A stretch of 64,000 nt of DNA from an uncultured Ruminococcus sp. (lineage in GTDB: Bacteria > Bacillota > Clostridia > Oscillospirales > CAG-272), in the NCBI GenBank assembly GCA_964558485.1, contig CAZLED010000001.1, positions 26,491 through 90,490 on the forward strand, in the 5' to 3' direction. Both the position numbers and the translations under genes were made by a program. The notes beneath the pieces are model-generated. The model made no database searches and was not told the origin of the DNA. It saw only the letters and a program-made list of their open reading frames with translations. Below are positions 7,867 to 64,000 of the stretch, piece after piece. How positions within the stretch are numbered: position 1 is the stretch's first letter; every line of letters starts with the position of its first letter.

Positions 7867-9333
7867 TCAATCTGCGAAGGATTCCAGCACCGTTTTGTAA
7901 TGCTTGGTGGCTGCGCTTTCCTGGGCCGCTGCTTTGGAGGCAAGGTCGGCGGAGTTGGCGGCGGTCAGGTCACAGAACAGATCGTTGTATTGGCTGTATT
8001 TGTAGGTGCTGGCAAAGCTGATCTTCAGACCATCCATGAGCAGTCCGAACATCTTCTGCGAGTCCTCGTTCCGGAGCAGCTTCTTTTGCATGACGGTCTC
8101 GAATACAGCCGGGTACACGTCATAGTAGCTTTCGATGGCAAGGGCTTCGGTGATCTGCCCGGTGCGATCCATGTCGGCGGTGACCTTGGGAATGCCCAGC
8201 AGACCTGTGCCGCCGGTCACCGTGGTGATGTACCGCTCGTCGGAGGCTTCCCACTTGGGGAACACCAGCAGACCATACTCCGCTTCCATGTCCCGGAAGA
8301 ACTGGTAGGCATCGGTCAGGAAGCCGGAGTAGAACAGACCCTGGTCGTTGGCGAACATCTTGGCAAGGTCGTTTTCCTTGGAGTAGTCGGTGATGAGCCA
8401 GGAGGACGGCGTGTGGGTCAGGGTGACGATGGCTTCCAGGATGGACTGGTTCCGGTCGGACAGCAGGGACAGGGTGAAGGTGCCGTCACCGTTGAAGGTC
8501 ACAGGCTGCACGCCCATGCCAACGGAAAAGGCACCACCGGAGGTACCGTGGGAGGACAGCAGTCCATAGGTGTCCCCATCGTCCCAGGTGCCGTCGCCGT
8601 TTTCATCCACGGATACCGTTTCCACCATCTGCGAGAAGGTGTCGAAGGTCCAGTTGTTCTCGTTCACGTATTCATACGGAGACGTCAGCCCATATTCCGT
8701 GACCATATCCATGTTGCAGAACAGCACGTGGGACAGCATAACGCCGGTGAAGGGGATGTAGTTCATTTGCAGGAAGCACTTGCCGTTCTGGGTCAGGGAC
8801 TCCACAGCCAGCTGGTTCCACCAGGCGCCGGTCATATCGATGTGGGGCACGTCGTAGTAGTTGGCCAGATAGCCGCCCAGTGACAGGGACGACATATCGT
8901 TCACGTGGGCCCACGCCAGATCGTAGGCACCGTCCCCGGCGGTCACAGAGGTTTTGACCAGGCTGGCGGCACTGCCGATGGTGGCGGCGATCTCTACGTT
9001 GAAGTTTTCCTCTACGGTCTGGTTCCGCTTGTAGATGGTATCGTTGATCACGTCTCCGGTCAGCTCGTCCACCACAAATTCCATGGCAGGCAGCTCACCC
9101 AGCTTGGCATACTCTCTGCCGATGATCTGGTAGGTGGCACCCTCGTAATTGGCGGCCGGTAGCAGGTCTGCAGAGCGCTGGACGGCGGTCTCGGTCTCCG
9201 GTGCGGTGGTGTCTGCCACAGTGGTGTCGGACTGGGGCGTGGTCTCGTCTGTGGTACCACCGGAGCAGGCCGTCATAGCGGTCGATACCAGCAGTGCACA
9301 CAGGAGCAGGGAAAATAGCTGTTTCGTTTTCAT
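7867..9333 (-). CDS. Lipoprotein, ABC-type extracellular solute-binding protein family (paralog A)
   Basis: MKTKQLFSLLLCALLVSTAMTAC lipobox, T/E/D-rich linker, then family blocks (INDTIYKRN, GAWWNQ, DENGDGTWDDGD, YGLLVFPK, RNEDS). GAGGAAG RBS before ATG 9331-9333. Confidence 0.8.
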   Translation of the reverse strand: MKTKQLFSLLLCALLVSTAMTACSGGTTDETTPQSDTTVADTTAPETETAVQRSADLLPAANYEGATYQIIGREYAKLGELPAMEFVVDELTGDVINDTIYKRNQTVEENFNVEIAATIGSAASLVKTSVTAGDGAYDLAWAHVNDMSSLSLGGYLANYYDVPHIDMTGAWWNQLAVESLTQNGKCFLQMNYIPFTGVMLSHVLFCNMDMVTEYGLTSPYEYVNENNWTFDTFSQMVETVSVDENGDGTWDDGDTYGLLSSHGTSGGAFSVGMGVQPVTFNGDGTFTLSLLSDRNQSILEAIVTLTHTPSSWLITDYSKENDLAKMFANDQGLFYSGFLTDAYQFFRDMEAEYGLLVFPKWEASDERYITTVTGGTGLLGIPKVTADMDRTGQITEALAIESYYDVYPAVFETVMQKKLLRNEDSQKMFGLLMDGLKISFASTYKYSQYNDLFCDLTAANSADLASKAAAQESAATKHYKTVLESFAD

Positions 9334-9389
9334 GACAAATCTTCCTCGGTTCATGAATTGTTTTTTGTAGTACAATCGTTGCTACCATG

Positions 9390-9418: not shown

Positions 9419-9845
9419 GATGATGGCACAAAGATCGTTTGGCTTTTTTCAGAAGCGGCGGTGGGTCCTATATAATAAAAGGTAGGCTTCTCATCTATGC
9501 CAGGTTGGATGGTGGCGGTTTTGCTGCAATCACAAGCCCAAAAGCGAAGACGTATGGCTTTTGGATCGGTTTTCCACCGGGATCGGTGTCGTATAAGGAC
9601 AGCATCCTACCCGATGTCCCGTTTTTCGTCATTCTGTCGTAATCTGCAACCGGATACGGAAAGAAATTCTATGCGCTTCCATGCTGCAAGTTTACAGATT
9701 CATACTGGATTTGATGGCGCATAACGGGTATACTATAAGGGTATTTTTTATACACATATTTATATTTATAGAAACGCTGGAGCCGCTTGACAGAATTTTT
9801 GATTTCTCTCTGAAATATTTTTATGGCTCGGCGTGGAGGAGATCC

Positions 9846-11330
9846 ATGACAAAAAAGCATACCCTGATCGCACTACTCTTAGCGTTCCTGACCATTGCAC
9901 CTACCTTTGCTTCCTGCGCAGGGGACACAAAGGAGACACAGCCTGCCAACGATACTACCGCTGACAAAACCGACACTACCGAAACCACCGATGCGGTGAC
10001 TGCCGATATTCCGGTGCTGGATTTTGGTGGCGCAGACTTTACCTTTGGAGATTCTGACGAAACAGACCACAACGGTGCCGAATGGGCGACCTACGACGTT
10101 TGGGTGGATGGTACCACCGGCGACGCACTGAACGATGCGGTCTACGAACGGAGAATGTATCTGGAAAACACCTACAAGATCAATATGAAGGAAGTCAAGG
10201 GGCATACCCAGGTGATCACGGAACAGGACGTGACCTCCGGTACCGGCGAATTGGATGCCGTCATGACCAATGTACTGGTGTCCTGCAACTTAGCGACCAG
10301 TGGCTACACCCGGAACCTGTATGACGTACCCTATATCGATCTGACCAAATCCTATTGGGACCAAGGCTGTGTAGAAGACCTGGAGCTGCTGGGTGGCGTG
10401 TATTTTGCCAACGGTGACATCACCGTCATGGACGACGACGCCACTTGGGTACTGATGTTTGACAAGGGTCTGTACGAGGACAACGGCTTTGAGAACATTT
10501 ACGAAAAGGTCAAGAACAAGGACTGGTACATGGACGATATGCTGGAAATGATGTCCACCGCTGCCCGGGACGTGAACGGGGACGGCGCTATGCTCTGGAC
10601 CGACGATATTTTCGGCTTCACCACCTCCTACAACTCCTGCCAGGGTCTGTTCTATGCCTCCGGCGAAAAGTTCGTTTACAAGGATGAAAGCGGCAAGCCT
10701 GCTCTGACCACCTCTCTGGAACGGCTGACCAATGTGGTGGAGAAGACCGGGAAGATCATGGCAGACGAGAACCTGACCATTCTGGTGAACACCATTGGTT
10801 CCTATGACGATATGCGTGCTATGTTCTCCGAGGGCAGAGCGCTGTTCTATGGGGAAGTGCTGCAGTGTGTGACCCGTCTGCGGGACAGCGATGCGGACTT
10901 TGGTCTGATCCCGTGGCCTATGTTCGATGAAAACCAGGACGGTTACCACAGCTTTGTACACAAGAGTGCCGGTAAGGGTATCTGTGTCACCGCAGCTGCC
11001 AAGGACGTGGATATGTCCGGTGTCATCATCGAGGCTATGGCTGCCAAGTCGGTAGACACGCTGACCCCGGCCTACTACGACATTGCCATTACCCGGAAGG
11101 CTATGCGGGACGAGGAATCCGTGGAAATGCTGGATATCATCCTGAAGGATCGCCGGTATGACTTGGGTTATATCTACAACTGGGGTGAACTGTACGAGGA
11201 GATCCGTGGGCTGATCGCCTATGGCGAGACCACCGTTGCCTCCACCTGGGAAGCGTACGCCGGTGCCTGTGAAGCCGGTATCAACGAGACCATTGCTGCA
11301 CTGGAAAAGATAGCAGCTACACGGCAGTAA
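9846..11330 (+). CDS. Lipoprotein, solute-binding protein family (paralog B)
   Basis: MTKKHTLIALLLAFLTIAPTFASC lipobox. LNDAVYERR, KSYWDQG, DVNGDGAM, FGLIPWPMFDE, MRDEESVEMLDI. GGAGGAG RBS before ATG 9846. Confidence 0.8.
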   Translation: MTKKHTLIALLLAFLTIAPTFASCAGDTKETQPANDTTADKTDTTETTDAVTADIPVLDFGGADFTFGDSDETDHNGAEWATYDVWVDGTTGDALNDAVYERRMYLENTYKINMKEVKGHTQVITEQDVTSGTGELDAVMTNVLVSCNLATSGYTRNLYDVPYIDLTKSYWDQGCVEDLELLGGVYFANGDITVMDDDATWVLMFDKGLYEDNGFENIYEKVKNKDWYMDDMLEMMSTAARDVNGDGAMLWTDDIFGFTTSYNSCQGLFYASGEKFVYKDESGKPALTTSLERLTNVVEKTGKIMADENLTILVNTIGSYDDMRAMFSEGRALFYGEVLQCVTRLRDSDADFGLIPWPMFDENQDGYHSFVHKSAGKGICVTAAAKDVDMSGVIIEAMAAKSVDTLTPAYYDIAITRKAMRDEESVEMLDIILKDRRYDLGYIYNWGELYEEIRGLIAYGETTVASTWEAYAGACEAGINETIAALEKIAATRQ

Positions 11331-13013: not shown

Positions 13014-14510
13014 TTACTTTTCCAGATATTCCATAAACTTGGCAATGTTGGTCTCGATGGTACCCTTGTTGGAAGCAACGGTGGATGCCACCTGGTTGTC
13101 GCCGTTGAACAGCTTGCTGTTGATGGTGCTCCGCATACTGCTGTTGTACCAGTTGAACATGATGGCAATGTCTACCGCACGGGTCTGTCGCATGATGTCC
13201 AGCATCTCCACGGAGTCCTCGTTCCGCAGGCCCTTGTGTTCTACAACCGTATTATAGTACAGGGGGATCACCTTTTCCTGGCTGTCGTGTGCCAGAACCT
13301 CGGTGATGGTGGCAGTCTGGTCCAGACAGCTGTTGGTGGTGGGGATGGTCAGGCAGAAGACAGAGGTCACGATGTTGGTGATGTAGTTTTCCTGCTCTTC
13401 GTCTGCCTTGGGGAAGGGCACGATACCAAAGGTGTCTTCCATATCTCGCATGAGCTGGGCCGCCTTGATCTCACCGGTCATGAACAGGGATCTGCCTACG
13501 GTGAACACGTGTACATAGCCGCCTGCATCCACGTCAAAGTCTACGTTGGAGGCCTTCAGGGTGTTGCCGGTCTTGCCGTTCATCAGCACCGCCAGCTTGT
13601 CGATTACGTTGTAGAAATGCTCGTTTTCCAGGGTGAAGGCGATGGTGCCGTCGCTCTGGGTCTGAGCGCAGCGTACACCGGCAGAGAAGTAGAATTTTTC
13701 CGGTCCGTCCTGGTGGGAGGAGATGCCCCAGAGGCAGGTGCCGTCCTTGTTCCACTTGAAGGATTCATCGGTGTTCAGGGTCGCCACCTCGGTGCAGTAT
13801 TCGGTCAGCGCATCCAGCGTCCATTTGCCCTCACGAACCAGGTCATAGGGCTTATCCATGTTCCGTTCTTCCATCATGTTTTCGTTGAAGAACAGGCACC
13901 ACATGGAGTCGTATGCCATCAGGTTGATAGCGCCGGTGGCAAAGTACAGCTTATCCTGCAGCGTGGTGGCCTGGATCACGTCCTGGTCCCACCAGCTTTC
14001 CGACAGCTGCAGCTGGGGAATGTCCATCAGGTTCAATAGATACCCTTCCGTCACCAGTGAAATATCCTGGGAGATGGGCAGGAACATCACGTCATAGTCG
14101 TCGCTGCCGGACATGATGGAGGTCTTGGCCTCGTCGGTCAGCAGCGTCACGGTGTTGGCCGCATCGCATTCGATCTTCTTTTCGATGATCTTGCAGTTGA
14201 GCTTGTCCTCGATGGCACGGTTCCGGTTGTACAGGGCATCGTTCAAGGTCTCCCCGGTCAGCTCGGTGGCGTCCATGTAGATGAACATATTCCAGAGCTG
14301 GTCAAAGTTCAGCATCCGGTATTCGCCACCGGCGTAGTCCACATCGGGATACTGCCAACCGTCGGTCTCGGCTTCGGTGGTAGTTGTGTCGGCGCCTGTG
14401 GTGTCGGTGTTGGATTCGTCCGTGTTGGTGCTGGTTTCTCCGGCGCAGGAGAAGAGCATAGGGGCTGTCAGCATAGCAGATAGCAGCAGGGCAAGGATAC
14501 GTTTTTTCAT
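13014..14510 (-). CDS. Lipoprotein, solute-binding protein family (paralog C)
   Basis: MKKRILALLLSAMLTAPMLFSC lipobox. LNDALYNRN, ESWWDQD, FGIVPFPKADE, RNEDSVEMLDI. AAAGGAG RBS before ATG 14508-14510. Confidence 0.8.
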   Translation of the reverse strand: MKKRILALLLSAMLTAPMLFSCAGETSTNTDESNTDTTGADTTTTEAETDGWQYPDVDYAGGEYRMLNFDQLWNMFIYMDATELTGETLNDALYNRNRAIEDKLNCKIIEKKIECDAANTVTLLTDEAKTSIMSGSDDYDVMFLPISQDISLVTEGYLLNLMDIPQLQLSESWWDQDVIQATTLQDKLYFATGAINLMAYDSMWCLFFNENMMEERNMDKPYDLVREGKWTLDALTEYCTEVATLNTDESFKWNKDGTCLWGISSHQDGPEKFYFSAGVRCAQTQSDGTIAFTLENEHFYNVIDKLAVLMNGKTGNTLKASNVDFDVDAGGYVHVFTVGRSLFMTGEIKAAQLMRDMEDTFGIVPFPKADEEQENYITNIVTSVFCLTIPTTNSCLDQTATITEVLAHDSQEKVIPLYYNTVVEHKGLRNEDSVEMLDIMRQTRAVDIAIMFNWYNSSMRSTINSKLFNGDNQVASTVASNKGTIETNIAKFMEYLEK

Positions 14511-14607
14511 GCAGATGATATACTCCTTTTGTGATGATAGATGAAACGATTTGCATTCCAAGCCAAACAAAAGCATGGATCGGGAACGTTTTATGGTGCC
14601 GTGTATC

Positions 14608-14636
14608 ATTATACTACATTCTGTTGGCAAAAGCAA
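14608..14636 (-). promoter_or_regulatory. Promoter of SBP paralog C
   Basis: Minus strand: TTGCTT (14636-14631), 17 nt spacer, TATAAT (14613-14608). Confidence 0.5.
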
Positions 14637-24686: not shown

Positions 24687-26168
24687 ATGTCTGCCAAAAA
24701 ACGGATGCTTGCTTTGCTGCTGACGGCACTGCTGCTGTCGTCTGCCTTTGTGTCCTGCGGAGAAACGGAGGTCCAGGAGGAAGAGACAAAGGGTGCGGAT
24801 ACTGTCGCCACCACAGCGGAACCGGAGACCGAGGAGATACGCTATGCAGCGGATATTCCTGCAGGTACTGACTACAACGGAGAGACCTTTACGGTGCTGG
24901 CCTTTCCGCTGGAGACGCTTGTCTGGGGTGACGTGGACTGGAATGCCGAAGAGCTGACCGGGGAAGTGGTCAACGATGCGGTGTACAACCGTACGACCAC
25001 CACGGAGTCCAAGCTCAACGTGGCTATCGAGGTGGTCCACATGGACAGCTACGGCAACGCCAATATGCTCCAGAAGTCTGTGAATGCCCAGGACAATGCC
25101 TATCAGCTTGCCACCAACTCGCTGCAGACCACCTTGACCATGGGACAAAACGGACTGCTGGCGGAGCTGAATGACTATGCCGCACAGGGCACGCTGGCAC
25201 TGACCTCGCCTTGGTGGGACCAGAACTGCCTGAACGACCTGTCCGTGGATCACAAGAACTATATCCTCACCGGCGACATTGGTACCATGTACAAAAAGTC
25301 CATCGGCGCCATCATGTTCAACAAGGCCATCTACAACAACTACAGCCTGGAGGATCCGTACCAGCTGGTGGAAGACGGCAAGTGGACCATCGACAAAATG
25401 GTGGAAATGGGCACCCAGGTTTCGGTGGACACAAACGGCGACGGCGTTATGGATACCGAAGACCAGTTTGGTCTGATCTGCTTCTGCGATATGATGCCGC
25501 TGGCGTTCATTGGCGCCGGTGTACAAATGGCGACCAAGGATGCGGATGACGTTCCCCATCTCAGTATGTATTCCGAAAAGACCGTGTCCGTGATGGAAAA
25601 GCTGGCGACCCTGATGTACAACGAGTCCATCACCTGGAGCTGGTCCAAGGCCGGTGTCACCGAGGAGACCGCTTTTGCCATGTACCAGGCGGATCAGTCC
25701 TTCTTCTACTATGGGGAGCTGCACGCCGTTGCCATCATGCGGGATATGGATTCTCCCTTCGGCGTCCTGCCCATGCCCAAATATGACGAAGCACAGGACA
25801 GCTACTACCACTGCGTCAATCCCAATGTGGCTTCCGTATACGGTATCCCGGTCACCAATGTTGCCTACGACATGACCGGTCACGTGATGGATACCCTGGG
25901 TGCCGAATCCAAAAACGAGCTGACGCCGGCCTACTACAATGTGACGCTGCTGGGCAAGGTCAGCCGGGACAGCGAATCTGTGGTATCGCTGGATATCATC
26001 ATCGGCAGCATCCGGTACGATCTGGGCTATCTGGGCGGTATCGGGATCAGCTCTATGCTGTACACCATGGCAAACGCCTGCAATTCCGACCTGACCTCCC
26101 AGTACGAGGCAAAGGCAAGCTCCTTTGAAAAGGCCCTGGAAAAGTTCGTGCAGGCCTACGTGGATTGA
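24687..26168 (+). CDS. Lipoprotein, solute-binding protein family (paralog D)
   Basis: MSAKKRMLALLLTALLLSSAFVSC lipobox. VNDAVYNR, SPWWDQN, DTNGDGVMDTEDQFG, FGVLPMPKYDE. GGAGG RBS. Confidence 0.8.
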   Translation: MSAKKRMLALLLTALLLSSAFVSCGETEVQEEETKGADTVATTAEPETEEIRYAADIPAGTDYNGETFTVLAFPLETLVWGDVDWNAEELTGEVVNDAVYNRTTTTESKLNVAIEVVHMDSYGNANMLQKSVNAQDNAYQLATNSLQTTLTMGQNGLLAELNDYAAQGTLALTSPWWDQNCLNDLSVDHKNYILTGDIGTMYKKSIGAIMFNKAIYNNYSLEDPYQLVEDGKWTIDKMVEMGTQVSVDTNGDGVMDTEDQFGLICFCDMMPLAFIGAGVQMATKDADDVPHLSMYSEKTVSVMEKLATLMYNESITWSWSKAGVTEETAFAMYQADQSFFYYGELHAVAIMRDMDSPFGVLPMPKYDEAQDSYYHCVNPNVASVYGIPVTNVAYDMTGHVMDTLGAESKNELTPAYYNVTLLGKVSRDSESVVSLDIIIGSIRYDLGYLGGIGISSMLYTMANACNSDLTSQYEAKASSFEKALEKFVQAYVD

Positions 26169-26349: not shown

Positions 26350-27867
26350 ATGTTGACAAGAAAAAGAATGTTCGCGTTGCTGCTGGCGGCGCTGCTGCTG
26401 ACATCTTCCTTTACGGCTTGCGGTGAAGTCGAGGTGGTGGAGACCCAGGATGTGGCCGATACCACAGCTGCTCAGGAGACCGAGGAGGTGGAGCCCTTTG
26501 CCAATGTGGATTTCGGCGGACAGAGCCTGCGCATTTCTTCCTCCATCGATGAGGAGGACTCCACCAATGCCCATCGACTGATCGCCGGTTCCGGAGAGCT
26601 CAATGGCGAGGTGGTCAACGATGCGGTGTACCAGCGGAACCTGACGGTGCAGGAGCTGCTGAACGTACAGCTGGAATTTCTACCGTCGGAATGGACCTAC
26701 GGCAACGGACACACCGAGATCGAAAAGCTGGTGCTGTCCGGGGACGCCGGGTTTGAAGTGGTCATCAACGACCTGATCAACTTAGGCCGTATCGCCCATA
26801 AGGGGTACTTCCACTCCGTTTCCAACAACCAGATCATGGACTTCTCCAAGTCCTATTAGTACGGCGAGGCCATTGCGGATCTGGAGATCGTACCCGGTGC
26901 TGCCTACATGATGTTAGGGGACGTGTTCGCCGACTGCCTGGCTTCTGCCCATGTGCTGTACTACAATAAAGATATCATCAACAATAACTATGCGTCCCCG
27001 GACTATGTGCAGGATATCATCCTGGACGGCAGCTGGACCGTGGACGAAATGATCCGCATCACCGAGGAGACCGCAGTGGACCTGGACGGCGACGGCACCA
27101 TCTCCGAAAAAATGGGAGACCTGGGCGGTTACTCCGTCATTGGCGCCTGGGGACCGATGATCCCGGTGCTCATGGGCTTTGATGTGCAGTTCATGGATGA
27201 GACCGAAACGGGCAAGCTGGCGTATTGCTTCAACAACGAACGCTCCGTGACCATTCTGGAAAAGCTCAACGAGCTGTACTGGGCAAGCTGGAATTACCAG
27301 GACATCACCGACCATTCGGCAACGGGTCTGCTGAATCTCTATGCGGACCAGAAGACGGTGTTCGTGGGCTATCTGCGGCTGGGCGACCTGGAAAAGATGC
27401 GGGACATCGAGTTCCAGGTGGGTCTGGCCTGCTACCCGAAGCTGGATACGGACCAGCAGAAGTATGTTTCGTCTCTGCACGATACCTCTGAGGTCGGTGC
27501 GATCATGGTGACGGCACCGGTGGATCAGATGGACTTTATCTCCACGGTGCTGGAAGTGATGGCAAGAGAAGCCGGCCGCACGATCATTCCGGCATACTAT
27601 GAAGAAGCGCTGAAGATCAAGTACGTGAACGGTACCGGAGACGCTGCCATGATCGACCTGATCCACGATGCGATCACTTCTCCTTTTGCGCTGGCGTACA
27701 ACAATATCCTTGGTGAGGTGCTGCTGGGCAAGTGCTTCCTGACACCTCTGGGCAGCAAGAGAACAGACTTTGCCTCTGCCTATGCGTCTGTCGAAAAAGC
27801 CGCATTGGAAGACCTGGATGAGCTGGTAGAAGCCTTCACCGAAGTGGTGGAAAGACAGGGAAGATAA
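26350..27867 (+). pseudogene. Solute-binding lipoprotein paralog E, interrupted by a single in-frame TAG (26857-26859) at the family-conserved Trp
   Basis: ORFs 26125-26859 and 26908-27867 are in the same frame. The sequence reads ...DFSKSY*YGEAIADLEI... where the other paralogs have KSYWDQG, SPWWDQN and similar. The lipobox (SSFTAC) and the downstream family blocks are intact. Confidence 0.75.
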
Positions 27868-29427: not shown

Positions 29428-30135
29428 ATGAAGAAACTGCTTTCGTTTTTGTTCGTTTGTTTGCTGTGCACGGCGCTTCTCTGTCCCGTCTCTGCCGCCG
29501 ACTGGGTTGTGGACACCTTTGTGTCGGCCTTTGATGAAGCACCGGATTGGTTCGACGACGCCAATGTGGTGGAGTTTGAGGACTACTATGCAGAAGGCGC
29601 CACCAATGCCCGTGCCGGTGACAACTATGTATACCTGAAAAACGACGGGAAGGGTGACTTTTCCATCGAGTTCCAGGTGGACGAAGACGGCATCTATGAC
29701 ATTGGCGCTACCCTGATGGGTTGGACCAAGAGCGTGCCCCGTTCCACCAACATGACCGTAGACGGCGCACCCTTTGTATATGTGATGTTCGATTACGAAG
29801 ACGATTCTACCCAGTATGTTGAGCAGTATCTGACCGGGCTGCAAATGGAGCTGACCAAGGGTACACACACCTTTACCCTGTCCCTGGCCTCCGACTTTGA
29901 CGACAGCACCGTCAAGAGCCTGTACTTCGACAACTTCTTCTACCACAAGGCAGCCGATATTCCGGTCGAGACTGCAGCACCGGAGACGGTGGCAGAGACC
30001 GTTGCAGATATTTCTGCGACAGATGCAGCTGTGGCAGAACCGGTGGCAGCACCCCAGACCATGGATGCCGGTGTGTTTGCTGTGATCGCTATGGTGACCG
30101 CACTGAGCGGCTACATGGCTTCGAAGAAGAGATAA
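29428..30135 (+). CDS. Secreted protein of unknown function with A/E/T/V-rich stalk and C-terminal PQTMDAG-helix-SKKR anchor signal
   Basis: Signal peptide MKKLLSFLFVCLLCTALLCPVSA. C-terminus ...VAAPQTMDAGVFAVIAMVTALSGYMASKKR. GGAGG RBS. Confidence 0.7.
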   Translation: MKKLLSFLFVCLLCTALLCPVSAADWVVDTFVSAFDEAPDWFDDANVVEFEDYYAEGATNARAGDNYVYLKNDGKGDFSIEFQVDEDGIYDIGATLMGWTKSVPRSTNMTVDGAPFVYVMFDYEDDSTQYVEQYLTGLQMELTKGTHTFTLSLASDFDDSTVKSLYFDNFFYHKAADIPVETAAPETVAETVADISATDAAVAEPVAAPQTMDAGVFAVIAMVTALSGYMASKKR

Positions 30136-30214
30136 ATTTGGTTCGATACGATGGCGGTATGGGGGATGCCTGTACCGCCTTTTCTTATAAAATGATACGA
30201 AACGAGGATCTACT

Positions 30215-31654
30215 ATGCATACCAAACGACTGCTTACGCTGCTGCTGGCGGCACTGCTTCTGACCGCCTGTGCAGGAGAAACCATCGAGACCATCGGTAC
30301 CGAGTCCACGACACCTGTGGAGACCACGCCGGAGACCACCTATATCGATACCCTTGGCAAAAAGGATTTTGGCGGCGCCACCTATACCTATGCCTTTTCC
30401 GGACGCAACAGCACGATCCCCATGCTCGACCCACACGTGGGTGAGCTGACCGGCGAGATCATGAACGATACGCTGTACAACCGGGACAAATGGATCGAAG
30501 AAGAGTACGGTGTATCCATCGAATATTTGGAGGATGGCGACATCCAAAGCAGCATCCGCAATGCGGTACAGGCCGGAGATGCCCTGTGCGATGTGGTGGT
30601 CGGCTCCCTGGCTGACGGCAAATCCGGACTGGGCGCTGTGGTGCAGCAGGGTGTGCTGTATAACCTGTTGGACGTGCCGCACCTGCAGCTGGACAAGGAA
30701 TGGTGGAGTCCGCTGATGTACGAGAATGTACAGTACAACGGCAAGATGTTCTTCACCTCCGGCGACATGGCACCCTTCTCCTACATTGGTCCGGCCTGCG
30801 TCTATATGAACCTGGATCTGGCGCTGAACTACCAGGTGGACGAAAACGAGATCTACGAGCTGGTGTATGACGGCGACTGGACCTTTGACGAGCTGTACAG
30901 CCGGTATAATGGTCTGGACAATGACCTGAACGGGGACGGCAAAATGCACTGCCTGGACGACTTCTACGGCATCGTCACGGAATACAACAACCTGACCTCC
31001 ACGCTGCTTTTGGTGGCAAACGATGTGAAGCTGTGCGAAACGGATGAAAGCGGAAAGCTTGCCATCCATCTGAACGATGAACGCACGGTGTCCGTTATTG
31101 ACAAAATGGCGAACTATTTCCAGAAGATCGAAAACAACGGCGACAACACCCTGCTGTTTGACGAGACCTTCAAGTTCGACCGGGCGCTGTTTGCGGTGCA
31201 TTATGTGGAATCGACCCTGCGCCGGTTCCGGGATATGGACAGCGACTACGTGATCCTGCCCATGCCGAAATACGACACCACCCAGGAAAGCTACGTGTGC
31301 TACATCAATCCGTGGGTACAAGCCTTTGTTTCCGTTCCGTTGGTGGTAGAGGACATCGAAAGAGCCGGGTTCATCACCGAGGTCATGGAATATAAGTCTG
31401 TCGAAATGGTGCGGCCGGCTGTGTATGACGTGACCCTGAAGGGCAAAGCGCTGCGGAACGAGGACAGCCTTGCCATGCTGGACATCGTGTTCGATACCAC
31501 ATATATCGACTTCAACGGCATCTACGAATTCGGCGGCCTGCTGGGTACGGTGAACGGTGCGATCTTCTACGATAGACCCTATGCCTCTGCCTATGCGGCT
31601 GCGGAAGAAAAGGCAAATACGGCGCTGGAAAAGTTCATGGAGATCTTTGCATAA
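30215..31654 (+). CDS. Lipoprotein, solute-binding protein family (paralog F)
   Basis: MHTKRLLTLLLAALLLTAC lipobox. MNDTLYNR, KEWWSPL, DLNGDGKMHCLDDFYG, YVILPMPKYDT, RNEDSLAMLDI. Confidence 0.8.
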   Translation: MHTKRLLTLLLAALLLTACAGETIETIGTESTTPVETTPETTYIDTLGKKDFGGATYTYAFSGRNSTIPMLDPHVGELTGEIMNDTLYNRDKWIEEEYGVSIEYLEDGDIQSSIRNAVQAGDALCDVVVGSLADGKSGLGAVVQQGVLYNLLDVPHLQLDKEWWSPLMYENVQYNGKMFFTSGDMAPFSYIGPACVYMNLDLALNYQVDENEIYELVYDGDWTFDELYSRYNGLDNDLNGDGKMHCLDDFYGIVTEYNNLTSTLLLVANDVKLCETDESGKLAIHLNDERTVSVIDKMANYFQKIENNGDNTLLFDETFKFDRALFAVHYVESTLRRFRDMDSDYVILPMPKYDTTQESYVCYINPWVQAFVSVPLVVEDIERAGFITEVMEYKSVEMVRPAVYDVTLKGKALRNEDSLAMLDIVFDTTYIDFNGIYEFGGLLGTVNGAIFYDRPYASAYAAAEEKANTALEKFMEIFA

Positions 31655-31730
31655 GAGAAACAGGGCTTATACAATTGTAGTACTTCTACATAAACGATAG
31701 AAAAATACGGCTGAAATTGTGGTAAAACCA

Positions 31731-31759
31731 TTGACAAATCCAGGAAACGGTGGTACAAT
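31731..31759 (+). promoter_or_regulatory. Promoter of the 378-aa anchored protein gene
   Basis: TTGACA (31731-31736), 17 nt spacer, TGg-TACAAT (31754-31759). Confidence 0.6.
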
Positions 31760-31800
31760 GTACCTATCCAAATTTATAAATTTCTTTGGAGGAAAACAAA

Positions 31801-32937
31801 ATGAAAAAGCTTTTGACACTGGCGCTGGCGACTGTGATGACCGTTGCCTGTGCGCTGGGTGCTTCTGCCGGTTGGTGTGACGAAGTGTTTGCCGACGTGG
31901 ATTTCTCCGCTTTGGCTACCTACGGTTCCGACGTGCTGGGCACCTACCAGATGCGTGGTTTTGCCACCGACCCCAACGGCAAGTACTACTTCGGTGGTAA
32001 CCTGCAGGGTGGTCCCACCATGTACAAGTTCAACACCAAGGGTGAAATGCTGGATTCCTATCAGTTCACCACCGATCCCGGCTCCTATGTGAAGGCCATC
32101 ACCTGTGACGACCGTGGCTACGTGTACAACGGTATTGCCAATGCCGCCAACAACGGTGCGTTCTTCTTCTCTATCTGCGACATGGAGACCCTGACCGAGC
32201 AGTCCTACGTGGAAGTGGCCATCGATGGGAAGATCGGTGTCAACGGTGTGGGCGTTGCCAATGTGGACGGCAAGTACATCCTGTCCCTGATCTGCAACTA
32301 CGACACCAACCGGATGTATTTCTTTGACGTGACCGACGTGAAGAAGCCCACCGAGATTAGCCATTTCGACCTGACCGAGGTTTGCGGCGTGGCCGAAGGC
32401 GGCAACTGCGCTATGGACTCCAAGGGCAATGTGTACTTTGCAGCGCTGAAGTACGACGGCAGCAAGGGTGACACGCTGATCAAGTGCGACATGAGCGGCA
32501 ACATTATCGAAGAACTGCGTCTGCCCGAGCCTTGGGGCGTGTCCGTGTTTGCGGATGAATACGTTGTGGTCGGCTGTCGGAACAAGACCGACTCCATGGT
32601 ATATGTAGTGGATACCGATACCATGACCACCGTTGGCGAATACCATCCCACCGATGCCATTGTGGACTCCGGTTTCTCCGGCGTGGGCATCATGAACGAC
32701 CGTATCTACGCCTGCGACCACTCCGGTTCCGATACCATTTATGTTTCCGAAGCTCTGCACATTCCTGCCAAGCCGGAACCGGTCGTAGAGACCGAAGCCG
32801 CTGCCGAAGTGGTGGATGCTGCTGCCGCTGAAACGACTGCTGTTGTAGCCGCTCCTCAGACCTTTGATGCTGGTGTGATCGCTGCTGTATGCGCCATCGT
32901 TTCCGCCGCCGGGTACGCTGTTTCCAAGAAGAGATAA
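31801..32937 (+). CDS. Secreted repeat protein (possibly beta-propeller) with A/E/T/V-rich stalk and C-terminal PQTFDAG-helix-SKKR anchor signal
   Basis: Signal peptide MKKLLTLALATVMTVACALGASA. Recurring G-x-(V/I/Y)Y strands (GKYYFGG, RGYVYNG, KGNVYFA, DRIYACD). C-terminus ...VAAPQTFDAGVIAAVCAIVSAAGYAVSKKR. Confidence 0.7.
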   Translation: MKKLLTLALATVMTVACALGASAGWCDEVFADVDFSALATYGSDVLGTYQMRGFATDPNGKYYFGGNLQGGPTMYKFNTKGEMLDSYQFTTDPGSYVKAITCDDRGYVYNGIANAANNGAFFFSICDMETLTEQSYVEVAIDGKIGVNGVGVANVDGKYILSLICNYDTNRMYFFDVTDVKKPTEISHFDLTEVCGVAEGGNCAMDSKGNVYFAALKYDGSKGDTLIKCDMSGNIIEELRLPEPWGVSVFADEYVVVGCRNKTDSMVYVVDTDTMTTVGEYHPTDAIVDSGFSGVGIMNDRIYACDHSGSDTIYVSEALHIPAKPEPVVETEAAAEVVDAAAAETTAVVAAPQTFDAGVIAAVCAIVSAAGYAVSKKR

Positions 32938-41850: not shown

Positions 41851-41910
41851 ATGAATAGGGAATAATGAAGAATGAAGAATTATGGTGGAAATAGCTTCGC
41901 TATTTCGAAT
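41851..41910 (+). repeat. AATGAAG-repeat plus hairpin element, copy 1
   Basis: aataatgaagaatgaagaattatggtg-GAAATAGC-ttc-GCTATTTC (hairpin 41888-41906). Confidence 0.65.
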
Positions 41911-41981
41911 GGTTGATAGGGGGCTGATTTCCTTTGCGAATTTGCAGCTGCGGTTTTATTCGGGAAATTCACCAAATCCTA

Positions 41982-42010
41982 TTGACAGAATACCAGTTTT
42001 GTGCTATACT
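41982..42010 (+). promoter_or_regulatory. Promoter of SBP paralog G
   Basis: TTGACA (41982-41987), 17 nt spacer, TGc-TATACT (42005-42010). Confidence 0.6.
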
Positions 42011-42046
42011 GTGTCCATACTATACTCGATACTTAGGAGGCTATTT

Positions 42047-43516
42047 ATGCGTAGAGTTTGTGCGGGACTGCTGGGGATCCTATTGCTGGTTTCTCTGCTT
42101 TCTTCCTGTGGCAATACAGAGGTCGAAGAAACGGTGGCTGCGGACAACACGGCCACGGAGACCCAGGCCGATACCACACCGGTGGAGACGAGCCGTGCCG
42201 ATTACCCGGACGATCTGCCGGAGAAGGATTTTGGCGGACAGGAGTACATCATTTGCAACATCATCACGGGAGACGTAGACAAGGAATATGAGATCCTGTC
42301 GGTGGAGCTGACCGGAGAAGCCTGCAACGATGCGGTGTTCCATCGGAATGTGAAGATCGAAGAACGGTTCAACACCAAGATCGCAGCCCTGATGGAAGCC
42401 GAGCCGGAGTCGGTGCTGAAGCAGTCTGCGCTTTCCGGAGACAGTGCCTTTACGCTGTGCGGCTACGTGAACTTCAAGGCCTATGTACCGGTAGCGGCCG
42501 GCGCCTGCCTGAACTGGAACGACATTCCCTATGTGGATCAGTCCAAGCCCTGGAATAACCAGCTGGCCAACGAGCCTGCCACCATCAACGGCAAGCTGTT
42601 CGCCATCAACAGTGACCTTTCCATTTCCTCGTTGCAATACACCTATGGGATGTTCTTCAACTATGCGCTGGTGGAGGACCAGGGATACACGCCGGCAGAT
42701 CTGTACCAGATGGTCTTTGACGGCGACTGGACCATCGACAAAATGCGGGAAATGACCGAGAACGTGTGGATCGATACCAATGGCGATACCAAGCACGATG
42801 CCAACGATATCCACGGATACGCCGTGCATCCCGGACTCAATACCACGGACGTCTGGTTGGCAGCGCTGGATCTGCCGGTGGCGACCATCCACAACGACGG
42901 TACCTACTCCATCGATTTCTTCTGTGAAAAGACTATTTCTGCACTGGAAAAGTGCATGGCGCTTACCTTTGACGGCGAGGGCACCTTTACCGGTACCGGT
43001 GGCTGGCGTGAGGTCCCTGCCAACTTTGCATCCGGCAAGATCATGATGACCCAGCTGTACTTTGGGGAGACCACCCAGTCTCTGACCGATATGGAGGACA
43101 CCTATGGGATCCTGCCGCTGCCCAAGTACGACAAGGAGCAGCAGGAATATTACACCAATGCCTGGGACCAGTTCTCCGTATTCTCTGTGCCGGTGACCGC
43201 ATCGGATCTGGAATTTGTGGGTGTGATCTTTGACGCATTGTCTGCAGAGACCTGGCGCACCGTATATCCGGCATACTACGACACCGCACTCAAGAGCCGG
43301 TATTCTGCGGACCCGGCGGTGGCAGAGATCGTGGACATCATCATGGCCGGACGGAAATTTGAGTTCACCTTCCAGTTCGGCGATGACCTGCAGCGTCTGC
43401 CGTATTTGTTCCGGGAAATGCTGGCGGCCAAGACCACGGATGTAGCGTCCAAGTACAAGAGCGTGGAAAGCAAAATGAAGGAAGCCATCGAGAAGATGTA
43501 CTCCTATTACGAATAA
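42047..43516 (+). CDS. Lipoprotein, solute-binding protein family (paralog G)
   Basis: MRRVCAGLLGILLLVSLLSSC lipobox. CNDAVFHRN, SKPWNNQ, DTNGDTKHDANDIHG, YGILPLPKYDK. AGGAGG RBS. Confidence 0.8.
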   Translation: MRRVCAGLLGILLLVSLLSSCGNTEVEETVAADNTATETQADTTPVETSRADYPDDLPEKDFGGQEYIICNIITGDVDKEYEILSVELTGEACNDAVFHRNVKIEERFNTKIAALMEAEPESVLKQSALSGDSAFTLCGYVNFKAYVPVAAGACLNWNDIPYVDQSKPWNNQLANEPATINGKLFAINSDLSISSLQYTYGMFFNYALVEDQGYTPADLYQMVFDGDWTIDKMREMTENVWIDTNGDTKHDANDIHGYAVHPGLNTTDVWLAALDLPVATIHNDGTYSIDFFCEKTISALEKCMALTFDGEGTFTGTGGWREVPANFASGKIMMTQLYFGETTQSLTDMEDTYGILPLPKYDKEQQEYYTNAWDQFSVFSVPVTASDLEFVGVIFDALSAETWRTVYPAYYDTALKSRYSADPAVAEIVDIIMAGRKFEFTFQFGDDLQRLPYLFREMLAAKTTDVASKYKSVESKMKEAIEKMYSYYE

Positions 43517-44599: not shown

Positions 44600-45211
44600 T
44601 CAGCAGCAGGGGACCAGGTCACCGCCGCAGCATTCACACATGGCATCGGCACAGAGCAGACTGGAGCATAGGCCGCAGCAGTCGATGTCATTGGCAGAAC
44701 CGGTGCTGGTGCGATAGGGAGAACCAAAGCCGGTGGAGCGCATATGCATCCGGTTTTTGGCTTCCCGGTATTCGGCGTTCTGGGGATCCAGATAGCACGC
44801 TACCTCGATATATTTGAGGGCATCGTAGTAATACCCACGCTGTACCAGCAGGCAGCCCTTCAGGTAATTCCATTCGGCGCCACGATCCCCTGCAGGTGTG
44901 GCATCCACCATCAGCTCGGCTTCGGCATAATGGCCGCCACGGATCAGCTCCCGGATCTGGGGAAAGGATGTGGCACCGGAGGAAGAATAGTTGGCGTAGG
45001 ACGAGCTCGTACGACCGCCACCTTTGCGTTCCTTTTGGATGGCTTCGTAGGCCTCGTTGACCTCTTTCATTTTTTCTTCCGCTACGTCTGCCAGGTCGGA
45101 GCCTGCGTAGTTGTCCGGATGATATTTCCGGGCAAGCTCCCGGTAGGCTTTTTTGATTTCCTCGTCTGTAGCCGTTCGGGGAACGCCCAGCACACTGTAT
45201 GGATCTTTCAT
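44600..45211 (-). CDS. J-domain (DnaJ-like) protein with TPR-like middle and extremely Cys-rich C-terminal tail
   Basis: [32 protein letters not shown] (HPD motif). The last 29 aa, [29 protein letters not shown], contain 9 Cys. Confidence 0.8.
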
Positions 45212-45213
45212 GT

Positions 45214-46200
45214 TCAGGTTCGACTCCTGTAATTTGTTTCGTCAATAGTCCCATCCGGGGACGAAAGAAAGGTGCGGTCACCGTGGGCCCGGCGGCTTTG
45301 GGGTTCACCGGCTGCGATACGCTGCACCATATTGGGCATACCCAGATAGACGATGTTGCGCACGATCTCGGTCAGTGGCACGTCCGGCAGCAGCTCTACT
45401 GCCTGTCCCAATTTGGCAAGATCCAGACCGGTAGCGGTCACAAAGGCATCTCGTACCGGGGCATTTTGCCTCGGGGCACTGCAGGCACCGTTCTCGGTCA
45501 GCGCCATCTCTCCCCAAAGTGCGTACAGGGGATTGTACCGATCCTTTGCCACGTCTTCGGGCAGGTCGTCCATGGCATCGCAGAGATACAAAAACCGTCC
45601 GGTCCCTACGCCGATGGCACGTGCGATCCGGGAAGCGGTATCCGGCAGACCTATGGCAAACAGCTCTCCCAGCAGTTCCCCAAAGCATTGTGCCATGGTA
45701 TCCGGGGATGCGCAGTTTTCTTTTTCCTTTGCTGTCAGCGCTTGTAGCTGTTGGGCGCAGAACCCGGGCAGTGCGGCGGTCTCCGGCAGCGCTTTTGTGG
45801 CACGGTGCTGCATGGGGATCGTCAATGGAGAAAGCAGCAGGGACGGCACACGGGTCAGCCCTTTTTCGTCCTGCCAGTCGTCCAGCCGTTTGGCTTCGGT
45901 CAGATAAGCTGCCACCGCTGCGGTGTGATCCAGCGCCGGATGTGGGTCTGCGATCAGTCGGGTGTGGATGGGATGCACGGCACAGCGGCATGGGGTAAAA
46001 TGAAAGGGTTCGGTGAGAATGCTGCGTACCAGTGCCAAAAAGGTGAGATCGTAGCTCAGGGTCAGTCGGGACGCTTGTCCGGTGACCCTTCCCATGGCAC
46101 GGCAAAGACCGCAGTAGACCCCACGATACCACCAAAACTCCCGAACACGCAGAGCCGCCGTATCCGGTCGCACATATCCAAACACAGCTGCACCACCCAT
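45214..46200 (-). CDS. Uncharacterised protein (DUF5685-like by memory of the FGYVRP...YCGLC N-terminus)
   Basis: (M)[36 protein letters not shown]. The start is ambiguous: ATG 46198-46200 or GTG 46183-46185. Stop lies 2 nt before the J-domain start. Confidence 0.65.
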
Positions 46201-63142: not shown

Positions 63143-63211
63143 AGGAACGTAGATATGAACGAGTGGATACCATCGGAACGATGAATGAAAACGATACAGG
63201 GAGGCTATACT

Positions 63212-64000
63212 ATGCGGAAGATCGCTTGGCTGCTGGTACTTTTGACAGTGGGCTCTACGTTGGCCGGCTGCGGTGCTGTGGAAGAAACAATAACAGAAAC
63301 AACGGGAAAGACGGAAACAGAATCGACTGTGGATACGGAACCGGAGATATCCGACGATCTGCCCGACATGGACTACGGCGGCGCCGACTTCCGGATCTAC
63401 ACAAGACAGTGCTGTGAGAGCCACAAGAACGGCGTCTATATGCCGGAGCAGACCGGGGACGTGATCTCCGATGCAGTCTACGAACGGAACCTTGCCATCG
63501 AAGAACGCTTCAATATAACCTTCACCGAGCCCTTCTTGGCACCCGATGCCGAGGCTACGGACCTGAACAATGCGGTACAGGCCGGCGACGATATGTGCGA
63601 GCTGGCGGTTTGGCACTACAAGCACCTGGGCGACTCTGCCGCTGCCGGGTACCTTGCCGACATTTCCCAGGCCGGCTACATTGGTTTTGACAAGCCCTGG
63701 TGGTATCAAAAGGTAAACGATGCCTATTCCGTAGGTGGTCACGCCTATGTGGTGGTGGGTATGTATGACCTGGACAACTACTTAGACAATGTGTGCGTGT
63801 ACTTTAATAAGGATATGCTCATCGACCTGACCGGGGACGACGACCTGTACTCCGTGGTCAAGGAAGGCAAATGGACCGTTGATAAAATGGAAGAGATCGC
63901 CACGCTGGCAACGGTGGACCTGGACGGTGACGGCACCATGGATCCCACCAAGGACCAGTTCGGCTACGGGCAGGCGTCCGGGTATGGCTTCATCTATCAG
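63212..64000 (+). CDS. Lipoprotein, solute-binding protein family (paralog H), N-terminal 263 codons; continues past window end
   Basis: Own translation: MRKIAWLLVLLTVGSTLAGC lipobox, T/E-rich linker, ISDAVYERN, KPWWYQK, DLDGDGTMDPTKDQFG. Open to nt 64000, so absent from the ORF track. GGGAGG RBS. Confidence 0.8.
   Translation, partial: MRKIAWLLVLLTVGSTLAGCGAVEETITETTGKTETESTVDTEPEISDDLPDMDYGGADFRIYTRQCCESHKNGVYMPEQTGDVISDAVYERNLAIEERFNITFTEPFLAPDAEATDLNNAVQAGDDMCELAVWHYKHLGDSAAAGYLADISQAGYIGFDKPWWYQKVNDAYSVGGHAYVVVGMYDLDNYLDNVCVYFNKDMLIDLTGDDDLYSVVKEGKWTVDKMEEIATLATVDLDGDGTMDPTKDQFGYGQASGYGFIYQ

Follow-up and report, generated by a model that had tools for sequence, protein, structure and literature searches.

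Two secreted proteins encoded in the window, the stretch of 64,000 nucleotides that was analysed as a whole, end in the same 28-residue tail, which raises the question of whether this tail is a sorting signal and, if so, of which kind. As the sequence-only reading had described them, and as verification of both ORF ends confirms, the 235-aa protein ends in ...AEPVAAPQTMDAGVFAVIAMVTALSGYMASKKR and the 378-aa protein in ...AVVAAPQTFDAGVIAAVCAIVSAAGYAVSKKR, each directly before the stop codon. The two are otherwise unrelated proteins of sugar-binding type: BLASTP finds a single significant segment between them, the last ~70 residues comprising stalk and tail (E 2e-7), and the mature domains, said earlier to be unlike each other, indeed give no BLASTP alignment and are modelled as different folds, a sandwich and a propeller. 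As the DNA of the two tails is identical at only 55 of 99 nt, a recent duplication within the locus does not account for the shared tail. In the six frames of the window, a regex scan detects PQT.DAG tails on these two proteins only and no real LPXTG-type tail.

Table 1. Positions of the two tail genes, their signal elements and the gene between them (positions are those of the window)
Feature	Position	Strand	Basis
235-aa secreted protein gene	29428..30135	+	ORF and translation
Predicted Sec signal peptide of 235-aa protein, MKKLLSFLFVCLLCTALLCPVSA	29428..29496	+	by eye from sequence
Motif A-P-Q-T-M-D of 235-aa protein, residues 208-213	30049..30066	+	sequence, regex
Hydrophobic helix AGVFAVIAMVTALSGYMAS then basic KKR, 235-aa protein	30067..30132	+	sequence
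479-aa SBP-like lipoprotein gene between the two tail genes	30215..31654	+	lipobox LLLTAC↓AGE
378-aa secreted protein gene	31801..32937	+	ORF and translation
Predicted Sec signal peptide of 378-aa protein, MKKLLTLALATVMTVACALGASA	31801..31869	+	by eye; homologue starts
Motif A-P-Q-T-F-D (consensus form) of 378-aa protein, residues 351-356	32851..32868	+	sequence, regex
Hydrophobic helix AGVIAAVCAIVSAAGYAVS then basic KKR, 378-aa protein	32869..32934	+	sequence

The 235-aa protein (Table 1) consists of a signal peptide, a CBM6/CBM35-like beta-sandwich (~25-177), an acidic stalk rich in E, A, V and T (~178-207) and the C-terminal tail. Its AlphaFold model (pLDDT 84.5) has its closest folds by Foldseek in CBM6 (2cdp) and CBM35 (2wz8), at a TM-score of ~0.6 on the target; Pfam and NCBIfam give zero matches, and the tail is common to the close ones among its 86 homologues. 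The 378-aa protein, counted from an ATG whose MKK is also where homologues start, is laid out as a signal peptide, a six-bladed NHL-like beta-propeller (~30-320), an acidic stalk (~321-350) and the tail; its model (pLDDT 89.7, pTM 0.82) is closest to the NHL propellers 1q7f and 7qrv (TM-score 0.72-0.73 on the target), and 196 homologues were found at E<=1e-3. The Sec signals previously assigned to both proteins are recognizable by eye as MKKLL and a hydrophobic stretch, leading to VSA↓A in the 235-aa protein, with presumed cleavage after VSA, and to ASA↓G in the 378-aa protein, and AlphaFold models a helix in these N-terminal regions (residues 2-18 and 2-20, respectively) as well as in the tails (residues 214-234 and 357-377).

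Both tails follow a consensus of A-P-Q-T-F-D-x-G, a 17-residue helix VIAAVAAIVSAAGYAVS and KKR; in the family the helix comprises 17-19 hydrophobic residues and is followed by KKR or KKH at the extreme C-terminus. Among 197 unique tails the motif positions hold A in 194, P in 191, Q in 155, T in 197, F in 196 and D in 197, and within the helix S at +14 is kept in 194, G at +17 in all 197 and Y/F at +18 in 196, with Ala conserved at +7, +8, +11 and +16; invariant are T, D and one helix Gly. The Met form of the 235-aa protein is a rare sub-variant, Met standing at +1 in 1 of the 197 unique tails of this first set, and it recurs in the close orthologues of that protein (P0270-P0274) and in locus L008. 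Conservation is much stronger in the tail than in its cargo: the propeller orthologues are 34-35% identical in the mature part versus 79-86% in the tail. The stalk of ~30 residues is made up largely of E (25%), A (17.5%), V (17%), T (12%) and P (9%).

A profile search of 1.84 billion representatives returned 266 protein clusters, defined at 50% identity, at E<=1e-3 and 80 at <=1e-10, and as these 266 representative clusters carry the tail at the C-terminus, its sharing goes far beyond chance. Among the matches listed by the exhaustive profile search, the tail is at the extreme C-terminus in 150 of 150, and the distance from Thr to the C-terminus is 23-26 residues in 149 and 30 in the remaining one. 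The carriers belong to at least 18 species-level MAGs of uncultured Oscillospirales from gut and rumen, deposited as 'uncultured Ruminococcus sp.', 'Clostridia bacterium' or 'Oscillospiraceae bacterium'. Several carriers are encoded in one genome, 48 tail ORFs being counted across 18 GTDB MAGs (1-7 per MAG, a lower bound). A motif confined to these two proteins, the outcome that would have spoken against a signal, is thus contradicted by this wide distribution, and the earlier view is confirmed that secreted proteins which are otherwise unrelated share a genuine C-terminal signal for sorting or anchoring.

Which signal is it? As had been noted, the tail is not LPXTG, and no NCBIfam or Pfam model of a curated sorting signal reaches threshold on it. 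P and T of the LPXTG pentapeptide are kept and L and G are replaced in 197 of the 197 unique tails, and TIGR01167 and PF00746 gave no match at E<=10 for the window proteins, the isolated tails or two consensus tails. The carriers do have the LPXTG-type layout of a signal peptide, a hydrophobic segment and a basic C-terminal end, and the tail resembles LPXTG signals further in Pro at -2, the invariant Thr, an acidic residue at +2, the Lys/Arg end and its presence on diverse surface proteins, several per genome. It differs from them in Ala for Leu, in Phe or Met for Gly after Thr, in the conserved helix sequence and, by our own reading of the 34-position TIGR01167 profile, in having 24 residues after Thr against ~30 positions. 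The best curated model is NF033846 (Rumino_NPXTG, 'NPXTG-anchored protein'), a 30-position C-terminal model of similar overall length that, judging by its name, stems from Ruminococcus-type Firmicutes; the consensus tail scores 17.0 bits on it versus a cutoff of 23.5, the tail of the 378-aa protein 15.8 bits, and that of the 235-aa protein has no match. The alignment of the consensus tail spans profile positions 8-30 only, i.e., the helix and basic end, whereas the NPXTG signature part stays unaligned and is replaced by APQTF/M-D, with neither Asn nor Gly.

In the sortase motif of Lactiplantibacillus plantarum, LPQTXE, the position after Thr is not restricted to Gly, and an acidic residue comes next (PMC3619620). 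The pattern [L/A]-P-Q-T-x-[E/D] covers both this motif and the APQTFD tail, with Gln before Thr in both; however, L. plantarum, a species of Lactobacillales that is in culture and has a known SrtA, keeps Leu first and varies at x, whereas the APQTFD tail fixes Phe. We know of no helix conservation in the L. plantarum signal. Both NF033846 and LPQTXE are closer to the tail than the SrtB-type signals (NPQTN, NPKTG and the C. difficile (S/P)PXTG) that had been put forward as its nearest analogues; these are likewise non-LPXTG signals with a P-x-T core, yet TIGR03063 (srtB_target) gave no match for APQTFD tails. Moreover, SrtB substrates are few and usually encoded beside srtB (PMC8225981), unlike the APQTFD carriers, which are many and have no adjacent sortase gene. 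Firmicu-CTERM (TIGR04145; cutoff 50 bits, 191 positions) gave no APQTFD match, its only score being 12.3 bits for a different orthologue tail, and the exosortase/PEP-CTERM, rhombosortase/GlyGly-CTERM and other NCBIfam -CTERM models gave none at E<=10.

In other lineages, the orthologues of the two window proteins have the tails AAKTGD, AAQTGD, APQTAD and APKTFD at the same place, a graded series of the form x[P/A]xT[G/A/S/Y/L/F/M]D. On TIGR01167 (LPXTG_anchor, cutoff 15.9), the AAKTGD tail reaches 18.8 bits when isolated and 13.7 bits, below the cutoff, when the whole protein is scored, and an SPNSGD tail (P0050) reaches 21.4 bits on NF033846 over profile positions 1-28. Drift is also seen among the known sortase class motifs LPXTA, LAXTG and NPQTN (PMC8225981). 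As the propeller homologue P0059 has a dockerin in this position, the tail stands in the place of a known module for surface attachment; distant propeller paralogues carry another unmodelled tail, GGCGS followed by a helix and KKKKD. The dockerins of Ruminococcus cellulosomes and amylosomes share with the tail the ecological group and the purpose of holding glycan-active modules on the cell surface, but dockerins are folded modules that bind calcium and attach non-covalently to cohesin, and the APQTFD tail is a membrane-spanning signal. Anchoring scaffoldins of Ruminococcus (ScaE/Sca2) have been described as sortase-attached (PMC4611034; PMC11557425). A dockerin protein is also encoded in the window, at 2705-5362.

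The statement that the window holds no sortase gene stands, as a TLxTC regex, phmmer with SrtA and SrtB on ORFs of at least 80 aa, Pfam on 22 window ORFs and precomputed Pfam annotation of six further genes were all without a match. Neither was a sortase gene found in the window together with 55 related loci (~650 kb in total), in the Pfam-annotated neighbourhoods or near ~60 tail genes. Assuming 1-2 sortase genes per ~2.5 Mb genome, ~0.2-0.5 unlinked sortase genes are expected in ~650 kb, and their absence therefore weighs little in either direction. As neither a sortase nor another processing enzyme was found in the ~650 kb, cleavage of the tail is inferred. LPXTG-type tails are equally absent from the ~650 kb sampled from carrier genomes, so that APQTFD looks like the main signal and not an extra one. 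The idea of a dedicated, separate sorting system thus loses ground, with no processing enzyme linked to the tail genes in ~650 kb, no coexisting LPXTG-type tails and graded tails in orthologues; compared with an additional system, a lineage-wide drift of the ordinary sortase signal is the better fit to this picture, though short of proof.

Most carriers combine a signal peptide with a carbohydrate-binding module (CBM9-like, discoidin, laminin-G, CBM6). Among 87 full-length carriers, 78 pass a signal-peptide heuristic, and the domains found are CBM9_1 (33), F5/8-type-C (27), Laminin_G_3 (12), PA and CBM_6. Their genes often lie in tandem and adjoin SBP-like lipoprotein genes, as in the window, where the 479-aa lipoprotein between the two tail genes has no Pfam match and a paralogue of it matches SBP_bac_1 weakly. 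When all ORFs of at least 120 aa from the window and 49 loci were clustered, the recurrent neighbours were only SBP-like lipoproteins, ABC ATPases and an oxidoreductase family, with no recurrent membrane enzyme. The SBP-like lipoprotein family, with 30 members in 16 of the 50 sources, is the only one enriched beside tail genes, which bears out the SBP neighbourhood described for the carriers. From their domains and this neighbourhood, the carriers (CBM6/35-like, CBM9-like, discoidin, laminin-G, propeller) probably capture surface glycans for uptake.

On balance we favour the reading that the tail is a C-terminal sorting domain, a drifted sortase-type signal of uncultured gut and rumen Oscillospirales through which small glycan-binding proteins are presented at the cell surface. 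The precursor, with the signal peptide seen in its sequence, would be exported by Sec and, going by the layout, retained in the membrane through its C-terminal helix with the KKR stop-transfer end; a sortase-type membrane-associated transpeptidase would then read A-P-x-T-F-D outside the membrane, cut after the invariant Thr and join the protein to the cell wall, so that the glycan-binding domain would sit at the end of the acidic flexible stalk. The drift from LPXTG would have exchanged Leu for Ala and the Gly after Thr for Phe or Met, keeping Pro, Thr and the acidic +2. The tripartite layout with fixed spacing, the near-invariant motif on unrelated proteins and the precedent that LPQTXE offers for a non-Gly residue behind Thr with an acidic one next to it argue for this, and the APQTFD scores below the threshold of every sortase-signal model argue against it, as does the bulky Phe after the scissile Thr, for which we know of no characterised precedent. 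The helix of a sortase substrate is discarded after cleavage and strong conservation of it is atypical, which also counts against a sortase; the helix AAVAAIVSAAGY is conserved to an unusual degree, which suggests that the membrane segment is read as well, by the enzyme or by a partner.

A serious rival, though a rather unlikely one in our estimate, is an uncleaved C-terminal anchor in the cytoplasmic membrane, in which the juxtamembrane APQTFD and a small-residue face (AAxAAxxSAAG) would serve helix-helix packing, either in self-association or in docking to a partner in the membrane, for instance a transporter that cooperates with the neighbouring SBP-like lipoproteins. The conservation of the helix, from the Ala positions to S+14, G+17 and Y/F+18, would be explained, and the sub-threshold model scores, the lack of a processing enzyme near tail genes and the regular adjacency of SBP-like lipoprotein genes agree with it; a plain anchor, however, has no need of an invariant extracellular Pro-x-Thr-x-Asp exactly at the membrane edge, the pattern of P at -2, T at 0 and an acidic +2 is that of sortases, the acidic stalk resembles the wall-spanning linkers of wall-anchored proteins, and in orthologues the same slot holds near-threshold LPXTG_anchor or NPXTG tails, or a dockerin. 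We regard as improbable that the tail is the substrate of a dedicated, unrecognised non-sortase enzyme, a polytopic membrane protease or transpeptidase of exosortase, archaeosortase or rhombosortase type that would read the helix in the bilayer and cut near T-F. Motif, helix and basic end are common to all these systems, the helix sequence is conserved across unrelated carriers, no sortase model fits, and the GGCGS tail of the distant paralogues hints at several tail types in these Clostridia, but the clustered neighbourhoods lack a recurrent membrane enzyme, and both the P-x-T core and the series of orthologue tails speak for sortase ancestry. To our knowledge, moreover, exosortases and rhombosortases have been described in diderm bacteria and archaeosortases in archaea, and none as a substrate-processing system in Firmicutes.

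Recent domain duplication or gene conversion without any signal function might also leave unrelated proteins with one tail, and in locus L042 four tandem paralogues do have tails identical at 81-84 of 84 nt and mostly unrelated upstream parts. By this comparison, part of the tail identity within tandem arrays such as L042 is due to gene conversion and not to selection. As an account of the tail as a whole, duplication is nevertheless highly improbable, contradicted by the spread over 266 clusters at 50% identity and at least 18 species-level MAGs, by the 55 of 99 nt shared in the window, by tails confined to the extreme C-terminus of signal-peptide proteins and by synonymous changes that greatly exceed non-synonymous ones in other paralogue pairs (in L040 and L035, 8-9 synonymous and only 1 non-synonymous codon change).

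Every named database copy of these proteins that we saw, in hundreds of clusters from gut and rumen metagenomes, is a 'hypothetical protein'; it is now possible to understand them as glycan-binding proteins on the surface of abundant uncultured fibre-associated Clostridia, which helps in interpreting polysaccharide capture beside SBP-like lipoproteins, and a 28-residue profile would label a family that the current LPXTG, NPXTG and -CTERM models miss. If a sortase cleaves between Thr and Phe, the known specificity at the position after the scissile Thr would be wider, with a possible orthogonal tool for sortase ligation. It is doubtful, though conceivable, that the tail is read by an enzyme of new specificity, be it a helix-recognising sortase subfamily that tolerates a bulky aromatic residue behind the scissile Thr or a non-sortase membrane enzyme; either would, if true, define a new Gram-positive sorting system, reserved for surface glycan-binding modules of uncultured Oscillospirales from gut and rumen. 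With a drifted sortase signal, the graded tails of the orthologues would be a natural record of a sorting signal and its enzyme drifting together.

The tail, a 28-residue C-terminal segment comprising the motif APQTFD or APQTMD, a membrane helix and KKR, ends two proteins of the window, and a six-frame regular-expression scan of the 64 kb detected only these two tails of this type and no credible C-terminus of the LPXTG type. The sequence-only reading described a common tail on two otherwise unrelated secreted proteins and this description holds, as the BLASTP alignment of the 235-aa protein (APQTMD) with the 378-aa protein (APQTFD) is confined to the last ~70 residues (E 2e-7), i.e., the tail and the acidic stalk that precedes it, and the predicted folds differ. 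The AlphaFold models, built from homologue alignments and both confident, predict for the 378-aa protein a six-bladed propeller (pLDDT 89.7; closest solved folds the NHL domains 1q7f and 7qrv, TM-score 0.72-0.73 on target) with a disordered stalk at residues 338-356 and a terminal helix at 357-377, and for the 235-aa protein a beta-sandwich (pLDDT 84.5; closest solved folds CBM6 and CBM35 modules, TM-score ~0.6 on target) with a disordered stalk at 192-212 and a helix at 214-234. Neither protein matched a Pfam or NCBIfam family. Both N-termini, read by eye, start with MKKLL, continue with a hydrophobic segment and reach a site of the Ala-x-Ala type, as expected for Sec signal peptides. The idea that the 378-aa protein is an N-terminal lipoprotein (Cys of MTVAC) was discarded, since the hydrophobic ALGASA comes after this Cys, placing it inside the signal peptide core.

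Coordinates of the tail-protein genes and of other genes discussed in the window
Feature	Positions	Strand	C-terminus	Basis
235-aa tail protein	29428-30135	+	...AEPVAAPQTMDAGVFAVIAMVTALSGYMASKKR	ORF list and six-frame regex scan
378-aa tail protein	31801-32937	+	...AVVAAPQTFDAGVIAAVCAIVSAAGYAVSKKR	ORF list and six-frame regex scan
SBP-like lipoprotein	7867-9354	-		
SBP-like lipoprotein	9681-11330	+		
SBP-like lipoprotein	13014-14609	-		
SBP-like lipoprotein	24687-26168	+		
SBP-like lipoprotein (in-frame TAG)	26350-27867	+		
SBP-like lipoprotein	30215-31654	+		
SBP-like lipoprotein	41882-43516	+		
SBP-like lipoprotein	63185-64000	+		
885-aa secreted protein	2705-5362	-	type I dockerin	
DUF5685 and DnaJ-domain proteins	44600-46200	-		

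At the DNA level the two window tails are identical at 55/99 positions, which makes a recent local duplication unlikely. In each of L040 and L035, two related tail-bearing loci, the tails of paralogues differ by 8-9 synonymous versus just 1 non-synonymous codon change, which is purifying selection on the tail; recent duplication as the sole origin of the shared tail was discarded on the strength of these codon changes and the DNA identity of the window tails. Among propeller orthologues the mature part shows 34-35% identity, whereas the tail shows 79-86%. Tandem tail genes are frequent (three in L039), and in L042 (7684-11272; SVSN01000023.1, Oscillospiraceae bacterium SIG670) the tails of four tandem genes with mostly unrelated upstream domains are identical at 81-84 of 84 nt, a sign of local gene conversion or of 3' ends being exchanged repeatedly inside arrays. 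Purifying selection and gene conversion both act on the tails, and the former shows that the tail sequence matters, helix included.

The sequence-only reading allowed that the motif might occur in these two proteins only, and this is not the case. A tail profile of 33 positions was made from seven tails. Run exhaustively over 1.84 billion protein representatives, it matched 266 clusters at E<=1e-3, 80 of these at E<=1e-10; this search was used instead of one with a 40-aa tail profile against a word-indexed protein database, which returned just 5 short fragments. Among the 150 matches listed, 149 have the motif Thr 23-26 residues before the C-terminus and one has it 30 residues before. Evidence for the spread that is independent of the tail profile comes from the homologue search with the 378-aa protein, which recruited dozens of unrelated 260-330-aa proteins via the tail alone (6-17% query coverage, 70-97% identity). 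Counting from the motif Thr, the presumed scissile residue, as position 0, the 197 unique tails have A at -3 in 194, P at -2 in 191 and Q at -1 in 155 (K in 22, A in 16), T at 0 in all 197, F at +1 in 196 and D at +2 in 197, followed by A, F or M at +3, G at +4 in 167, V-I-A-A-V-A-A-I-V-S(194)-A-A-G(197)-Y/F(196)-A-V-S at +5 to +21, and K-K-R/H at +22 to +24. The 235-aa protein and its close orthologues have Met at +1 instead, which is a rare sub-variant. The stretch of 30 residues leading up to the motif is richest in E (25%), followed by A (17.5%), V (17%), T (12%) and P (9%).

The tail is a real, widespread and strongly constrained C-terminal domain of secreted proteins of glycan-binding type. 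The signal-peptide heuristic was passed by 78 of the 87 full-length carriers, whose Pfam domains include CBM9_1 (33), F5/8-type-C (27), Laminin_G_3 (12), PA (3) and CBM_6 (2), and all named database copies are annotated as 'hypothetical protein'. Back-translation was based on an alignment of 7 tails, since one of 33 was too diverse for it. Scanning GTDB species representatives with two peptide patterns gave 36 loci in 18 MAGs with at least 48 tail ORFs, 1-7 per MAG; these are labelled uncultured Ruminococcus sp., Clostridia bacterium (goat and buffalo gut), Oscillospiraceae bacterium or Eubacteriales bacterium, and one, CAZUUA01, has ~91% DNA identity to the window. A metagenome contig scan gained little, its 13 loci being mostly short. 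In the pair L033 (CAVGEC010000067.1) and L029 (DJPP01000013.1), whose proteins both have the variant helix AGVGIYAVTAVLSLGGMAW, a tail locus is binned under 'Bacteroidaceae bacterium' with a protein close to one from an Oscillospiraceae MAG, which is probably bin contamination.

This domain lies outside every curated model. NCBIfam, including the TIGRFAM sorting-signal models, and Pfam gave nothing at threshold for the APQTFD tail, in keeping with the initial view that the motif is not LPXTG. The best model, NF033846 Rumino_NPXTG, reached 15.8-17.0 bits against a cutoff of 23.5 and aligned to the helix and basic end only, and LPXTG_anchor, srtB_target, Firmicu-CTERM and other -CTERM models did not match. 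PQTFD, PKTFD and APQTFDAG were absent from the literature searched, in which we found no account of either Oscillospiraceae or Ruminococcaceae using a non-canonical sortase signal.

We have little doubt that the tail is a sorting or anchoring domain of some kind. In other lineages, orthologues of both window proteins carry at the same position a graded series of tails (APQTFD; APKTFD; APATLD; APQTAD, APTTAD, AAKTAD; AAKTYD; APQTSD; AAQTGD, AAKTGD), in which position 0 is always Thr, position +2 always Asp and position -2 always either a small residue or Pro, and the residue after Thr varies by lineage. The propeller homologue P0059 has a dockerin in place of the tail and, together with the series, this indicates that the tail occupies the slot of surface-attachment modules. 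The AAKTGD tail scores 18.8 bits on LPXTG_anchor alone versus 13.7 in the whole protein (cutoff 15.9), and an SPNSGD tail 21.4 bits on Rumino_NPXTG, under the 23.5 cutoff; judged by sequence, APQTFD grades into near-threshold matches to these sortase-type models. We therefore lean slightly towards a drifted sortase-type signal cleaved after Thr; that the tail is cleaved, that the proteins are attached to the wall and which enzyme acts are inferences. A serious rival, though less likely, is that the tail stays uncleaved as a membrane anchor and that its conserved helix packs against a partner. The Lactiplantibacillus plantarum sortase signal LPQTXE, like APQTFD, has a non-Gly residue after Thr and an acidic residue next (PMC3619620), and class-specific drift of sortase motifs (LPXTA, LAXTG, NPQTN) is textbook knowledge (PMC8225981).

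That the window lacks a sortase, as was first noticed, is borne out: across the window and 55 loci (~650 kb), neither a TLxTC regular expression with His/Arg context nor phmmer with S. aureus SrtA and SrtB queries detected one. A housekeeping sortase gene does not normally lie close to the genes for its substrates. At an assumed 1-2 sortase genes per ~2.5 Mb genome, this much DNA should contain only ~0.2-0.5 of them, so that finding none says almost nothing. All-against-all clustering of neighbouring ORFs revealed no other recurrent membrane enzyme in the same DNA, and the DNA beyond the window ends and two further Pfam-annotated neighbourhood sets held no processing enzyme; that the tail is the signal of an unrecognised non-sortase enzyme we consider improbable. 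LPXTG-type tails were likewise absent from the ~650 kb, which mildly favours APQTFD as the main signal of the lineage over a role as an additional, dedicated signal.

Distant propeller homologues of 450-490 aa (P0053-P0064, P0074, P0090, P0093, P0103, P0113 and others) end in another conserved tail, made up of G-G-C-G-S, a hydrophobic helix and KKKKD. This tail has no NCBIfam match at E<=10 and may be a second C-terminal signal of uncultured Clostridia, one that contains Cys and lacks a model.

The SBP neighbourhood first noted around the tail genes recurs elsewhere, as ~500-aa SBP-like lipoproteins are the single enriched neighbour family in the clustering (30 members in 16 sources) and again adjoin tail genes in the Pfam-annotated neighbourhoods. 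The window has eight or nine paralogues of ~480-550 aa, including a 479-aa member with lipobox LLLTAC between the two tail genes; they have no Pfam family but one weak SBP_bac_1 match, and none of the genes beside them was recognised as an ABC permease. The codon at 26857-26859 of one member is an in-frame TAG, where metagenome contig L001, which differs from the window at 8 of 13,936 nt, has TGG (Trp) and with it an intact 505-aa ORF. The TAG reflects either a sequencing error or a nonsense variant that makes the gene a pseudogene. The 885-aa secreted protein has SH3_3, a Listeria-Bacteroides repeat and a partial Peptidase_M23 match, and its dockerin implies a cohesin-dockerin system in this organism; among the proteins of the window no cohesin was seen. 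Elsewhere, a DUF5685 protein (328 aa) adjoins a DnaJ-domain protein of 203 aa whose C-terminus is rich in Cys.

The tail is of value to annotation and to explaining how uncultured Oscillospirales capture glycans at their surface, and if the enzyme indeed accepts Thr-Phe or reads the membrane helix, it could gain further interest.
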